This document shows positions 36,337 to 41,790 of a stretch of 64,000 nt of DNA, in pieces. The position numbers and the translations under genes were made by a program. The notes below the pieces were generated by a model. The model had not been told where the DNA came from and ran no database searches. It worked only from the letters and a program-made list of their open reading frames with translations. Positions within the stretch are counted from its first letter, which is position 1, and the number at the start of each line of letters is the position of its first letter. The DNA comes from Escherichia coli (GTDB taxonomy: Bacteria > Pseudomonadota > Gammaproteobacteria > Enterobacterales > Enterobacteriaceae): NCBI RefSeq assembly GCF_036507355.1, contig NZ_AP027877.1; one strand, written 5' to 3'.

Positions 36337-37236
36337 TTAACGCAATAATGGACAATCTGGTGGTAATCGACAACGCAACGCCGCCGGAAGTATTTCAATA
36401 TGGAAGTTTTGCCCACTCAACGGTTCGCCATCAAGATTAAAAGTGATTTCGTGTGGGGCTTGTATATCAAACCACGACGAAGCGCCTTCGATAATATTCG
36501 GGTTATCTTCGTCAGATTTTAAGGTTGATACGAGAGCCGGAAGAATTTCATCGCCGGTAAAAATGCGCAGTTGCAGCAAGCCATCGTTAATTAACGCGTT
36601 CGGGCACAATTGTTGACCGCCACCGGCCTGACGCCCGTTACCAATACCAATGACCAGGGCGTCACCTTGCCAGTGAAAGTTTTCACCGCGGATTTCACAA
36701 CGGTCCGGTTGCAGAGTATCCATGCGCATTAAGCCATGAATGATGTAAGAGACGCCACCCAGCGCGGCTTTTAATTTTTCCGGCGTTTCTGTGGTAATAC
36801 GCGTCCCAAATCCGCCTGTCGCCATATTAATAAAACAGGTTTGTTTGTTGACCTGCGCCATATCTATCGCAATGGCGTTACCGGCAATTGCCAGTTTCAG
36901 CGCCTTATCCAGTGCCTCAGGAATCCCTACACTGGTGGCAAAATCATTGGCGGTTCCTAATGGCAAAATTCCCAGCGCGGGTATGTCATCCCCCTCACAC
37001 TGAATCAACGCCGTAGAAACTTCATTAATGGTGCCATCGCCACCACCGGCAATCACCGTTGCGACGCCCAACTTCCGGGCCTCCTCTACATATCGTGCGG
37101 CATCGCCTTTCTCCCAGGTGACCCGCACATGGATCGTCATTCCTTCCTCACGCAACAGCATAATTGCTTCGCGCAATGGTAAATTGTCAGTACTTTTGCC
37201 ATTAAGAATCAGTAAGCTGGCGGGAAATTCTGCCAT
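36337..37236 (-). CDS. yegS: Lipid kinase YegS (DAG-kinase catalytic domain family)
   Basis: 299 aa; GGDGT motif. Confidence 0.9.
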
Positions 37237-37641
37237 GATCGTATGTGCCTTTATGATTGGTCTGTAGATAGTGTAGAGCAGAAAAGAAAAGGTGGAGTCA
37301 GAACAGGATGAAAGTCGGAGGATAAATAGTCAGTTCAAGTATGGAGGATTCAGTGGTTACCACCAGGAGCTTGCAATGGGGACAGCGAATACTAACGGCA
37401 GCCACCGATAAATTTCAAAAAAGAGCATATACCTAATATTCAACTAAACAGTGGCATCTTCAATATAATATATTAAAGCCTCCATGGAGTTACCCGGAAG
37501 GGCCTCCATGTCCGTAATTCCTACTTATGTAGGAAATGTTGTACAGAACATTTATTATAATCCTATTCAATTATAATAATCATGCCATTATTATATTTAA
37601 ACACTAGAGAGTGTCGTTGGTATTTAATGGGGGAAGGTGAG

Positions 37642-37959
37642 GTGAACAAGATAGCTGCTATATCATTAATTAGTGTTTTTCTTATGTCTGGTTGTGCTGT
37701 GCATAATGATGAGACAAGTATCGGTAAATTTGGTCTTGCATATAAAAGTAATATTCAGCGTAAACTCGATAATCAATACTACACCGAAGCCGAAGCTTCT
37801 TTAGCCAGGGGCAGAATTTCTGGTGCAGAAAATATAGTAAAAAATGATGCAGCCCATTTCTGTGTTACTCAGGGCAAAAAAATGCAGATAGTTGACCTGA
37901 AGACAGAAGGTGCAGGATTACATGGCGTCGCTCGTCTGACATTCAAATGTGGAGAGTGA
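37642..37959 (+). CDS. yegR: Small lipoprotein-like protein YegR
   Basis: Probable GTG start (VNKIAAISLISVFLMSGCAV lipobox); ORF-track start 37582 is an upstream extension. Confidence 0.6.
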   Translation: MNKIAAISLISVFLMSGCAVHNDETSIGKFGLAYKSNIQRKLDNQYYTEAEASLARGRISGAENIVKNDAAHFCVTQGKKMQIVDLKTEGAGLHGVARLTFKCGE

Positions 37960-38117
37960 GAATATTTTTTGGTAAGCGCCAAACATGCGCGTTCTGGTTG
38001 TGCTTAGCCGGAACCTGTGCGAGCACGATGCCGTTACGTGAAAGGCATCGTGCTATGAAGGGAGATTCTATCGATGTGGTCAATGGAAGACGGTGACCAG
38101 GGATAGGGCTTATGCAT

Positions 38118-38204
38118 AAAAAATAAGCCCGTGTAAGGGAGATTACACAGGCTAAGGAGGTGGTTCCTGGTACAGCTAGCATTTTATGGGTTATGTTTTT
38201 CAGC
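38118..38204 (-). ncRNA. cyaR: Hfq-dependent sRNA CyaR (RyeE)
   Basis: Reverse complement reads GCTGAAAAACATAACCCATAAAATGCTAGCTGTACCAGGAACCACCTCCTTAGCCTGTGTAATCTCCCTTACACGGGCTTATTTTTT, which matches CyaR as I remember it, including the terminator hairpin and U-tail. Confidence 0.85.
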
Positions 38205-38288
38205 GAAACGGATGATAACCTTAATAAATGCAGCTGTATGTGATCGGTTTCTAAGAATTTTCCATCCGGGAAAAATAATCGAAATTAA

Positions 38289-39650
38289 TCACTTACCGTG
38301 TGGGTTACGCGTGGTTTCCCCGGAGAAATTACGCATCAGCAGCGCGTAATTTAGCTCAAGATCCTGCGGCACCGGGAGCCACACAGTATAACCATCGCCT
38401 GGTGCTACCGGCATAGCTTCGCCTTTGGCGTTTTCCATGTGCTCAAGGGTAAAGTTAATGTTGCCTTGCGGCGTCATCAGCTCAAGGCTGTCGCCAACGG
38501 AGAATTTATTTTTCACCGCTACCGCCGCGAGGTCCCCCTTGCGCTCACCGGTAAACTCACCAACAAACTGCTGGCGGTCAGAAACTGAATAACCGTATTC
38601 GTAGTTCTGATAATCGTCGTGAGTATGACGACGCAGAAATCCTTCGGTGTAACCACGATGCGCCAGACCTTCCAGAGTTTCCAGCAGGCTGGTATCGAAC
38701 GGTTTTCCCGCAGCGGCGTCATCGATAGCTTTGCGGTAAACCTGTGCGGTGCGTGCGCAATAGTAGAAAGATTTAGTACGGCCTTCGATTTTCAGCGAAT
38801 GCACGCCCATTTTGGTCAGGCGTTCTACATGGGCGATGGCGCGCAGATCTTTCGAGTTCATGATGTAAGTGCCGTGCTCATCTTCAAACGCGGTCATATA
38901 CTCGCCCGGACGCTGGGCTTCTTCGATCATAAACACTTTGTCGGTTGGCGCGCCAATACCAAGCGTAGGCTCAACGTTTTGCACCGGAATCGGCTCGTAC
39001 TTGTGTACGATGTTGCCGACGTCATCTTCTTTACCTTCCTGTACGTTGTACTCCCAGCGGCAGGCATTGGTGCAGGTTCCCTGGTTCGGGTCGCGTTTGT
39101 TAATGTAGCCCGAGAGCAGGCAGCGACCGGAGTAGGCCATGCACAGTGCGCCGTGAACGAAGATCTCGATCTCCATATCCGGCACCTGATTGCGGATCTC
39201 TTCAATCTCTTCCAGCGACAGCTCGCGAGAGAGGATCACGCGGGTCAGGCCCATTTGCTGCCAGAATTTCACCGTCGCCCAGTTTACGGCGTTAGCCTGC
39301 ACCGAGAGGTGGATCGGCATTTCAGGGAAGTGCTCACGCACCAGCATAATCAGCCCTGGATCGGACATAATCAGCGCATCCGGCCCCATTTCCACCACCG
39401 GTTTCAGGTCACGGATAAAGGTTTTCAGCTTGGCGTTGTGCGGGGCAATGTTGACCACGACATAAAACTTTTTCCCCAGCGCGTGGGCTTCATTGATGCC
39501 GAGCTGAAGATTTTCGTGGTTGAATTCGTTGTTGCGCACACGCAGGGAGTAACGCGGCTGGCCCGCATAAACAGCATCTGCGCCATAAGCGAAAGCGTAA
39601 CGCATATTTTTCAGCGTTCCCGCCGGGGAAAGGAGTTCCGGTTTAAACAT
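38289..39650 (-). CDS. yegQ: U32-family peptidase-like protein YegQ
   Basis: 453 aa. Confidence 0.9.
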   Translation of the reverse strand: MFKPELLSPAGTLKNMRYAFAYGADAVYAGQPRYSLRVRNNEFNHENLQLGINEAHALGKKFYVVVNIAPHNAKLKTFIRDLKPVVEMGPDALIMSDPGLIMLVREHFPEMPIHLSVQANAVNWATVKFWQQMGLTRVILSRELSLEEIEEIRNQVPDMEIEIFVHGALCMAYSGRCLLSGYINKRDPNQGTCTNACRWEYNVQEGKEDDVGNIVHKYEPIPVQNVEPTLGIGAPTDKVFMIEEAQRPGEYMTAFEDEHGTYIMNSKDLRAIAHVERLTKMGVHSLKIEGRTKSFYYCARTAQVYRKAIDDAAAGKPFDTSLLETLEGLAHRGYTEGFLRRHTHDDYQNYEYGYSVSDRQQFVGEFTGERKGDLAAVAVKNKFSVGDSLELMTPQGNINFTLEHMENAKGEAMPVAPGDGYTVWLPVPQDLELNYALLMRNFSGETTRNPHGK

Positions 39651-39752
39651 AATTCTCTCGTTCTGATGACAGGTCAGATCCGCTTCACCTGATGAAGCGG
39701 TTAGGGGAGTGCCCCCACTTTAAGGGCGGGCATTGTAGCGCAATCGGCGGGT

Positions 39753-40049
39753 TTAGCTCCAGTGTAAATGTCTGGTGGCGTCCTGGTTTTGGTTAAGGAT
39801 ACGAATGACGATAATTTCCCCTGGTGATTGCAGGAAATAAATTACGTGGCGTTCAAAAGGAAGAACAAAAATACCTTCGCCTAATTCAGGTCTGGGCGTA
39901 CCTATATTATTGTTACTCAGAATCTGGAGAACGTCTGAAAGATGTTCCACATATCTGTCGGCTTGTGGTTCGCCGAAATGGTGATAACTGTAATACCAGA
40001 TGCCTTCTAAATCCTCATTGGCTTTTGGCATGAGTTTAATAATACGCAC
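39753..40049 (-). CDS. ParE/RelE-superfamily toxin (ParE-like)
   Basis: 98-aa ORF MRIIKLMPKANEDLEGIWYYSYHHFGEPQADRYVEHL...IVIRILNQNQD; 1-bp gap to the upstream antitoxin gene. Confidence 0.7.
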   Translation of the reverse strand: MRIIKLMPKANEDLEGIWYYSYHHFGEPQADRYVEHLSDVLQILSNNNIGTPRPELGEGIFVLPFERHVIYFLQSPGEIIVIRILNQNQDATRHLHWS

Positions 40050-40050
40050 A

Positions 40051-40302
40051 TTATTTCCTTATCCCTGCTTTCACCTTCCGTAAAAACGCGTCCTTTTCCC
40101 ACGGCTGAGCTTCACCACTACTCAACCCTTCTGCAAGCATGTCACGTAACGCTTGCAGGCGAGACTCTGCTTGCTTTTCTCGAAGTAAGCGCAGTGACTC
40201 ACGGATCACTTCGCTTTGGGTGCGATAGTCGCCGGATTCAATTAAGGACTCGATAAATTCACGCAACTCATCGCCGAGATCAACCGTCATCGTTCTGGCC
40301 AT
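40051..40302 (-). CDS. ParD-like (ribbon-helix-helix) antitoxin
   Basis: 83-aa ORF MARTMTVDLGDELREFIESLIESGDYRTQSEVIRESLRLLREKQ; immediately upstream of the toxin. Confidence 0.7.
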   Translation of the reverse strand: MARTMTVDLGDELREFIESLIESGDYRTQSEVIRESLRLLREKQAESRLQALRDMLAEGLSSGEAQPWEKDAFLRKVKAGIRK

Positions 40303-40352
40303 GTTTATGCTCTCCTGTAAGTAAAAATCTTACATCAGTGTATGTCATAAAC
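40303..40352. promoter_or_regulatory. Nested inverted repeats upstream of the parD-like gene (candidate autoregulatory operator)
   Basis: GTTTATG...TGTAAG-TAAAAAT-CTTACA...CATAAAC directly upstream of the antitoxin start. Confidence 0.35.
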
Positions 40353-40544
40353 CGGATAGCGTCACGAAAGTATTAGAAGATATTTTGGCAGATGAACATG
40401 TTCAGGAGGATAAGCATGGAGATGTTAAACAAAGAAAGCACAATGAGTATTCATCAGTGTCCACTATTTTAATGGCGCAGGTAAATAAATAAGCGTTATT
40501 TGGAAATAAAGCCGGACGCCAACAACCCACGCCCGGCATCGTAA

Positions 40545-40877
40545 TTACGTATTGTCTTTCACCGTCTGGCTTGTGCCATTGGCTTTAACGGAGGCAATTC
40601 CGGTTTCACGAGATTGCGCGGTGGCATACATCTGGCTGGAGCCGATAATTTGATGATTGGCGGCTTTCAGATTGAAATAGAATTTGCCGTTGCTTGCCGT
40701 TTTTTTCTCATAGCGTTCTTCTTGCGGGCTGTTGCTACGCACCGACGCGATGCCCTTTTCCGCAGAGGCTTTTGAGGTATACAGCTCGCTGGTGAGGATA
40801 GTCTCACCATTGCCCGCTTTTAGCACAAACCGGAACTGATTATCACTGCTCTTACTGAGTTCAAACCAACCAGCCAT
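40545..40877 (-). CDS. yegP: Small conserved protein YegP (tandem-repeat protein, function unknown)
   Basis: 110 aa from MAGWFELSKSSDNQFRFVLKAGNGE with an internal repeat (GKFYFNLKAANHQIIGSSQMY). Confidence 0.85.
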   Translation of the reverse strand: MAGWFELSKSSDNQFRFVLKAGNGETILTSELYTSKASAEKGIASVRSNSPQEERYEKKTASNGKFYFNLKAANHQIIGSSQMYATAQSRETGIASVKANGTSQTVKDNT

Positions 40878-41067
40878 AATGACTCCTTGATTGAAATTGC
40901 TTATCGAAAACAGCATCTAAAGGTGCTGTTTACCGATTAAAGTATGAGCGATTTTCTGATGCCTGCCAGGGCGGAGAGATAATGTCAGTTTGCTGACCAT
41001 GCGTGGGATAATGTTGCCGGATCTGGTCTGAACGCCATCTCCGGCTAACAAAATAATGTCGCTAAAA

Positions 41068-41790
41068 CTAAACGATGCGGCAGGCGTCGGCTTCCCAGCG
41101 GTAACCGACGCCGTAAACGGCGCGGATAAATGACTGTTCGGCGTCGAGAGATTCCAGCTTGCGGCGCAGGTTTTTAATGTGGCTGTCGATGGTGCGGTCG
41201 GTTACTACGCGGTAGTCGTCATAAAGATGATTGAGCAATTGCTCGCGGGAGAACACTTTTCCTGGTTCGTGAGAGAGCGTTTTCAGCAGACGAAATTCCG
41301 CAGGCGTCAGGTCAAGCATTTTACCGCGCCATGAAGCCTGAAAACGACCTTCGTCGATAATCAACGGGCTTTCAGCATCCTGTTGCTGCAACTCGCGCTG
41401 CGGTTTGCAACGGCGCAAAATGGTTTTGACGCGCGCTACCACTTCCCGTGGGCTGTACGGCTTACAGATATAATCATCTGCGCCAATCTCCAGTCCGAGC
41501 AGGCGGTCGATCTCTTCGATTTTTGCCGTGACCATCACGATAGGAATGTCAGAAAAACGACGAATTTCCCGGCACAGCGTCAAGCCATCGGTGCCAGGGA
41601 GCATCAGATCCAACAGGATCAGATCCGGTGGTGTCTGGCGCACATACGGCAGTACCTGATCGCCGTGGCTGATAAGCGTCGGCGCATAGCTCGCAGCACG
41701 CAGATAATCAATGAGCAACTGCCCCAGCTTCGGTTCATCTTCCACGATCAAAATACGCGGTGTGTTTTCGTCGATTGGTAACTCGGTCAT
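41068..41790 (-). CDS. baeR: OmpR-family response regulator BaeR
   Basis: 240 aa; receiver domain plus winged-helix; 4-bp overlap with baeS. Confidence 0.95.

Follow-up and report, generated by a model that had tools for sequence, protein, structure and literature searches.

The toxin-antitoxin (TA) system PrpT/PrpA of the Pseudoalteromonas rubra megaplasmid pMBL6842 (PDB 7YCS/7YCU) is the best solved match for both products of a two-gene module that lies between yegQ and yegP on the Escherichia coli chromosome, within a stretch of 64,000 nucleotides from contig NZ_AP027877.1 (RefSeq assembly GCF_036507355.1), hereafter referred to as the window. PrpA represses its own promoter via the motif TTTG(T/A)AAT (PMC7848731, PMC9731233), which was defined by footprinting, and also acts at plasmid iterons (PMC7848731); neither of these two papers states what PrpT targets. 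More distantly, the module resembles the canonical ParDE systems, represented by Caulobacter ParDE1 (3KXE), Mycobacterium tuberculosis ParDE1 (8C24), Vibrio cholerae ParDE2 (7R5A), and the ParDE of RK2. Gyrase poisoning has been shown for these systems, and gyrase is the target of ParE toxins (bioRxiv 10.1101/2025.07.24.666505; Jiang 2002, as cited in PMC7167474). We report here that the module is most likely a chromosomal type II ParD/ParE toxin-antitoxin operon of the PrpA/PrpT-like subgroup, in which ParD would repress the operon and ParE would poison gyrase, a reading to which we assign a probability of roughly 80%.

The toxin gene, parE (39753-40049, minus strand), initiates at a GTG codon and encodes a protein of 98 amino acids that matches Pfam PF05016 ParE_toxin with 51.3 bits (cut-off 23), covering profile positions 1-88 of 89, while no NCBIfam model matched it. 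At E<=1e-3, an exhaustive HMMER search with this protein yielded 1966 cluster representatives. By sequence, the solved structure closest to it was PrpT (7YCS, 2e-12), followed by MtParE1, CcParE1, and VcParE2, and at E<0.01 the PDB search returned ParE-type structures only. An AlphaFold2 model, derived from an alignment of 100 homologues (predicted local distance difference test score 93.6, predicted template modelling score 0.84), displayed the topology found in ParE, with a first beta-strand (residues 3-6), a two-helix hairpin (8-25 and 27-46), and a three-stranded antiparallel sheet (60-65, 68-74, and 78-86). When this model was used for a fold search, the 22 best PDB matches were all ParE-type, with template modelling (TM) scores of 0.75-0.9, and RelE, YoeB, and YafQ ranked lower, at 0.5-0.65. 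No catalytic residues are known in ParE toxins, and the appropriate test for the toxin is therefore the conservation of structural and family residues. The near-invariant residues A10, D13, I17, G26, A30, Y33, H68, R83, and L85 are all retained, so that the loss of conserved ParE residues, which an earlier note made from the sequence alone had named as grounds for doubting its own assignment, is confined to Asn86, considered below.

The antitoxin gene, parD (40051-40302, minus strand), starts with an ATG at 40302 and encodes a protein of 83 amino acids, scoring 69.2 bits against Pfam PF03693 ParD_antitoxin (cut-off 21) and 88.4 bits against TIGR02606 (cut-off 46.2). Its alignment with PrpA (7YCS, 2e-27) has approximately 61% identity over 77 residues and the same N-terminus, and spans residues 2-78, comprising both the ribbon-helix-helix (RHH) domain and the C-terminal toxin-binding domain. 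VcParD2, CcParD1, and MtParD1 also aligned with the antitoxin. The RHH_1 profile gave a weak match of 18.6 bits, below its cut-off of 20.5.

The arrangement of the two genes is that of a type II TA operon, in that they are small, co-oriented, adjacent, and tightly spaced, with the antitoxin first. A single base separates the parD stop codon (TAA, 40053-40051) from the parE GTG at 40049, and an AGGA Shine-Dalgarno sequence for parE is located approximately 6 nt upstream of this GTG, within the 3' end of parD. In related loci, parD and parE either overlap by 11-35 nt or are separated by the same 1-bp gap. No third operon gene was present among the open reading frames (ORFs) of the window. Coordinates, profiles, structures, and model are all in agreement with the earlier note, which had described a 98-amino-acid toxin of ParE fold placed 1 bp after an 83-amino-acid RHH antitoxin resembling ParD, between yegQ and yegP. 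Membership of the 98-amino-acid protein in the ParE family is secure; its strength as a toxin is not.

Comparison with the described systems places the module closest to PrpT/PrpA. The window toxin is 33% identical to PrpT, with a TM score of 0.88-0.91, and the two systems share the antitoxin-then-toxin order, an antitoxin RHH N-terminus of the form xRTMTVD, a Phe at the position of VcParE2 Trp25, and an operator core of TGTAA. In contrast with PrpT/PrpA, the window module is chromosomal and has neither a replicon beside it nor a known iteron target, its predicted operator is a perfect TGTAAG-N7-CTTACA palindrome, unlike the PrpA motif, and its toxin has Asn86 where PrpT has His. The module also shares its Pfam families, fold, and gene order with the canonical ParDE systems, as well as an RHH antitoxin with a C-terminal segment that wraps around the toxin, but toxin identity to these systems is 26-31%, and VcParE2 Trp25 and His88 correspond to Phe25 and Asn86 here. 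The PaaR2-PaaA2-ParE2 system of E. coli O157:H7 prophages (5CZF/5CW7) likewise contains a ParE-fold toxin from E. coli (TM ~0.77), but the identity is 16-17% and the system has three components, with a non-RHH PaaA2 and a separate regulator; the window module, with two genes and an RHH ParD antitoxin, is not a member of the PaaR-PaaA-ParE group. Finally, ParDE-I of IncI/IncF plasmids (Kamruzzaman and Iredell 2019, PMC6614396) is, like the window module, an enterobacterial TA module of the ParE superfamily, and it stabilises plasmids, induces the SOS response, and raises antibiotic and heat tolerance. However, ParDE-I combines a toxin of 15% identity to CcParE1 with a COG3905 antitoxin, compared to 26% identity to CcParE1 and a TIGR02606 ParD for the window module, and ParDE-I was rejected as a characterised counterpart, being of a different subfamily.

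Comparison across genera also allows a candidate promoter and operator to be placed upstream of parD. Reading away from the parD start on the minus strand, a Shine-Dalgarno sequence, AGGAGA (40311-40316; GGCGGG in the common E. coli allele, according to the allele alignment), is followed by the palindrome TGTAAG-N7-CTTACA (40316-40334, with arms at 40316-40321 and 40329-40334), a -10-like hexamer, TACACT (40337-40342), situated 2 nt upstream of the palindrome, and a -35-like hexamer, GTGACG (40360-40365), read from the sequence with a 17-nt spacer to the -10. The palindrome by itself is modestly unlikely, with one match in the window against 0.09 expected when up to one mismatch is allowed, and a match in 9 of 100 shuffled sequences; its weight comes from conservation in other species and not from chance statistics. 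It is present in all E. coli alleles. Three relatives were found via the toxin protein rather than by DNA similarity, on a Salmonella plasmid-like contig, in a Yersinia mollaretii prophage, and on the Pseudocitrobacter chromosome. All three have TGTAAGAT-N5-CTTACA positioned 12-16 nt upstream of the parD ATG, together with a TAnACT hexamer on the upstream side of the palindrome, at a distance of 2-3 nt, and a hexamer resembling TTGACA another 17-18 nt upstream. Pseudocitrobacter has the same -35 hexamer, GTGACG, as the window, and the corresponding hexamer in Salmonella, with 17-nt spacing, is TGGACG. A pattern scan of one genome per species contributed 13 further loci (8 from Enterobacterales and 5 from Legionella), in which the palindrome is present by construction and the -10 hexamer, the Shine-Dalgarno sequence, and the N-terminal half of ParD constitute independent observations. 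Most of the related loci have a hexamer of the TAnACT/TATAAT type 2-4 nt upstream of the palindrome, and the N-terminal half of ParD is highly conserved among them.

The half-site of the palindrome shares TGTAA with the PrpA motif, and the palindrome covers the predicted transcription start. An operator over the transcription start is the usual layout for autorepression by an RHH antitoxin. These data support TGTAAG-N7-CTTACA as the predicted promoter/operator element of parDE. The earlier note had proposed a set of nested inverted repeats as a possible operator. Both repeats exist, but conservation is limited to the inner palindrome. The outer repeat, GTTTATG...CATAAAC (40303-40352, with arms at 40303-40309 and 40346-40352), brackets the palindrome and the Shine-Dalgarno sequence, but it is perfect only in the window allele, a minority version of the upstream region found in approximately 98 genomes. 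One of its arms reads CGTAAAA in the common allele, and it is absent from other species. The outer repeat was accordingly discarded as a part of the operator and is probably not functional. In the Legionella loci, a second similar palindrome (e.g., TAAGACAATGTCTTA) occurs between the -35 and -10 hexamers, besides TGTAAGAT-N5-CTTACA, and the conserved ParD is accompanied by a ParE closer to PrpT, in which the His residue is retained (RVLHQSMD).

The earlier note had further suggested that the pair is missing from K-12 and probably strain-specific. The first part of this suggestion holds, since the yegP-yegQ spacer of K-12 BW25113 measures 146 bp and the module is absent, leaving no identical genes at this position in K-12. 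Alignment with BW25113 places the segment that differs from K-12 at 39742-40510, comprising approximately 769 bp compared to approximately 21 bp in K-12, and the GC content of this segment is 42.8%, compared to 54% for yegQ and baeR. The second part does not hold. The module was found in 1844 of 5426 complete E. coli genomes (34%), always chromosomal and in single copy, with carriers including O104:H4 C227-11, ATCC 8739, and O103 and O111 strains. Moreover, an 82-nt probe reaching into the 3' end of parE had full coverage in 2241 genomes, against the 1844 with the module, indicating that approximately 397 module-less E. coli genomes (~7%) keep the last ~19 nt of parE beside the yegQ leader. 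In Pseudocitrobacter, an assignment made from exact matches of its YegQ and BaeR proteins, the gene order is baeR-parD-parE-yegQ with no yegP, and the parE stop joins the yegQ leader at the same junction as that of E. coli. Given the 34% carriage, the parE remnants, and the synteny in Pseudocitrobacter, long residence with repeated loss is favoured over a recent strain-specific insertion. The module is thus accessory, and was probably ancestral at the baeR/yegP-yegQ site and lost repeatedly, with K-12 among the lineages affected; an insertion in the window is no more likely than a loss from K-12-like lineages. The B2 strain A0 34/86 has a parE remnant followed by a different island (PcfJ, DUF1266, DUF4034) in the place of yegP, which makes the site a replacement hot spot.

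When E. coli is compared with Pseudocitrobacter, nonsynonymous divergence (pN) is far below synonymous divergence (pS) in both genes, with a pN of 0.049 and a pS of 0.74 for parD, and a pN of 0.12 and a pS of 0.80 for parE (pN/pS ~0.15), indicating that both are under long-term purifying selection. Relatives of the module, at 60-80% nucleotide identity, are also carried by approximately 881 plasmids. The plasmid relatives share only ~39759-40343 with the window, that is, the operator/promoter, parD, and parE, which implies a mobile unit of approximately 585 bp. Some of the plasmid copies adjoin repB/Rep3 genes, the Yersinia relative lies in a prophage and adjoins lysis genes, and a single record in the phage collection had a DNA relative, which was weak. 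On the IncFIB plasmid pBEC1-S17-ESBL-09_1, a relative with a near-identical operator, TGTAAA-N7-CTTACA, is located approximately 1.4 kb from repB. This copy is decayed, its parD being frameshifted and its parE interrupted by in-frame stops, and as a pseudogene pair it was rejected as support for cross-talk.

Based on these data, as well as current knowledge of ParDE systems, a sigma-70-type promoter (GTGACG, 17 nt, TACACT) would drive a bicistronic parD-parE transcript. The RHH dimer of ParD would place its N-terminal beta-ribbon on TGTAAG-N7-CTTACA, over the transcription start, repressing the operon, while the C-terminal half of ParD would wrap around ParE and neutralise it. Free ParE would most likely poison DNA gyrase, as characterised ParE toxins do. 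It is by analogy with such systems that we infer toxicity and a gyrase target for the 98-amino-acid protein, and ParD would likewise be expected to bind the operator and to be the labile partner.

Several observations weigh against this reading. Residue 86 of the toxin is Asn, although His, which corresponds to VcParE2 His88, is found there in 98 of 134 relatives; residue 25 is Phe, which PrpT shares, while VcParE2, CcParE1, and MtParE1 carry Trp. Some ParE proteins, e.g., PaParE1, are weakly toxic, and gyrase is mentioned in neither of the PrpTA papers (PMC7848731, PMC9731233). A generic promoter scan did not report the parD promoter, the hexamers of which have a weak score (8 of 12), so that the assignment of this promoter depends on comparative conservation. 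The RefSeq Prokaryotic Genome Annotation Pipeline (PGAP) labels parD as a "frameshifted" pseudogene at 40051-40348 (minus strand) in NZ_CP026723, a genome with 100% identity to the window. With regard to the history of the site, synonymous sites in the TA genes are saturated and more diverged than those of yegQ (0.49) and baeR (0.62), and the module may therefore have been captured independently in the two genera, at a hot spot. Lastly, full-text searches of a literature library for ParDE together with yegQ, and for four RefSeq protein accessions, returned no publication on this locus.

The alternative that best survives these points is that ParE is attenuated or non-toxic and that the module is kept mainly for the sake of ParD, which would either control transcription or provide an anti-addiction antidote and cross-repressor directed against plasmid relatives. 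In VcParE2, Trp25 is the key gyrase-contact residue, at which only Tyr retained full toxicity, and His88 contributes to toxicity (bioRxiv 10.1101/2025.07.24.666505). Set against this mutagenesis, Phe25 and the substitution of Asn or Ser for His86 in the enterobacterial clade would be consistent with a weakened toxin; among the close enterobacterial relatives examined, position 86 is Asn or Ser in all except the Siccibacter copy, which has His. ParD is also far better conserved than ParE, as in the Salmonella plasmid-type copy, where the first 49 residues of ParD are identical and ParE is 68% identical. Furthermore, the plasmid relatives carry the same operator and would offer a target for cross-repression, and the activity of PrpA at plasmid iterons (PMC7848731) provides a precedent for a role centred on ParD. 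However, the purifying selection on parE, which is intact and of constant length across genera, argues against a dispensable toxin, and PrpT likewise has Phe at the Trp25 position, yet is described as a toxin. There is also no evidence of extra ParD sites here, and the single IncFIB copy examined is decayed. We consider attenuation unlikely, though it is the most probable of the alternatives.

A second possibility is that the main function of the module is phage defence by abortive infection, or stabilisation of the region around it, either of which would be compatible with a TA mechanism. Defence and stabilisation are roles frequently attributed to TA modules (PMC7167474), and relatives do occur beside lysis genes in the Yersinia prophage and beside rep genes on plasmids. 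In contrast, no PADLOC-DB model matches either protein, no mobile element flanks the module in the window, and the one weak phage record is all that the phage collection provided. Such a primary role appears rather improbable.

A more specific proposal, which we regard as improbable, is that the chromosomal ParD functions as an anti-addiction factor or cross-regulator that represses or neutralises incoming plasmid ParDE, or interferes with the replication of certain plasmids in the manner of PrpA, in combination with a ParE weakened by the change from His86 to Asn. It starts from the near-identity of the DNA-binding half of this ParD, and from the operator held in common, with a large group of plasmid-borne relatives that frequently have rep genes as neighbours. 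If this were true, the presence or absence of the module at the baeR-yegQ site would influence plasmid compatibility across E. coli lineages, and the yegQ/trhP promoter would likewise have a different -35 context depending on the module.

The PGAP label raises the further alternative that the antitoxin is a frameshifted pseudogene, which would make the toxin an orphan or leave it deregulated. For the common E. coli allele, RefSeq places the ParD start at an upstream ATG, giving a product of 98 amino acids. The window allele differs by an additional base immediately ahead of ATG 40302 (AAACATG compared to AAAATG in the common allele), which shifts the upstream ATG into another frame. However, this extra base lies upstream of the conserved start, the 83-amino-acid ORF is intact, and the protein is identical in the two alleles. 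The start MARTMTVD is kept in all of the 20-odd related loci, from Enterobacterales to Legionella, while the sequence upstream of it is unrelated; PrpA begins with MSRTMTVD, and the ParD_antitoxin and TIGR02606 profiles both begin at antitoxin residues 1-4. The 15-codon extension of the reference ParD, in turn, overlaps the promoter/operator and is not conserved, and the parD Shine-Dalgarno sequence is better in the window allele (AGGAG) than in the common allele (GGCGGG). Given the conserved start, the N-terminus of PrpA, and the profile boundaries, the true ParD product is probably the 83-amino-acid protein, with both the frameshift flag and the 98-amino-acid start probably being artefacts of annotation, and a pseudogene is very improbable. 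Least likely of all is that, instead of poisoning gyrase, the toxin cleaves mRNA as a RelE-like ribosome-dependent endonuclease, since, although ParE and RelE have a fold and superfamily in common, RefSeq names the protein a "RelE/ParE family toxin", and RelE, YoeB, and YafQ appear in the fold search, its sequence matches at E<0.01 are confined to the ParE type, its 22 best fold matches score ~0.2-0.3 TM above the RelE group, and its partner is a ParD antitoxin, not RelB.

With a ParD/ParE operon retained as the preferred reading, the surroundings of the module can be described briefly. It is bordered by yegQ/trhP (38289-39650; Peptidase_U32) and yegP (40545-40877 in the RefSeq annotation, other end 40916; DUF1508), with baeR and baeS located beyond yegP in the window. 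An Rfam scan of 37200-41100 at permissive thresholds reported CyaR alone and nothing inside the module; this small RNA (CyaR, also RyeE) lies downstream of yegQ at 38121-38206 on the minus strand (100.7 bits). The window (37960-38288) lacks the P2-remnant genes, ogrK and a late control D pseudogene, which in K-12 lie between yegR and cyaR. On the plus strand, divergent from parDE, an 18-codon mini-ORF (MEMLNKESTMSIHQCPLF) is present in 40404-40472, with a strong AGGAGG Shine-Dalgarno sequence 6 nt upstream. As a possible third component, this mini-ORF (40416-40472) was rejected, being disrupted in the common E. coli allele, where a 1-nt difference splits it into ORFs of 3 and 16 codons, and showing differences that are mostly non-synonymous; judged from these alleles, it is probably not a gene. 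The ~143 bp around it (40368-40510) are specific to E. coli, with no plasmid match and no Rfam match.

On the other side of the module, a -10-like TACAAT upstream of yegQ (39732-39741, minus strand) is located exactly at the border of homology with K-12. In K-12, a -35-like hexamer, TTTACC, lies 17 nt upstream of this TACAAT. In the TA-bearing allele, the end of parE replaces the K-12 -35 region, with no -35 match in its place and no terminator after parE, and for this reason the expression of yegQ/trhP may differ between the two alleles, or may depend on read-through from parDE.

At the level claimed by the earlier note, the finding is correct and already known. RefSeq annotates both genes and lists these exact proteins, found on at least 1000 contigs apiece, under the names "type II toxin-antitoxin system RelE/ParE family toxin" and "ParD family antitoxin", and both genes are labelled in more than 1800 complete E. 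coli genomes. With the family, the fold, and the likely mechanism well established, the locus offers little new biology, and its value is largely corrective: the module is accessory and probably ancestral, rather than a strain-specific insertion, and the "frameshifted" flag and the 98-amino-acid ParD start of RefSeq are probably wrong. In addition, conservation across genera allows the predicted operator to be placed at TGTAAG-N7-CTTACA. A statistical association of ParDE acquisition with the appearance of quinolone-resistance mutations has been described for E. coli (PMC10575684), and given this link and the action of ParE on gyrase, a common chromosomal ParDE would be a reasonable, if routine, experimental target.

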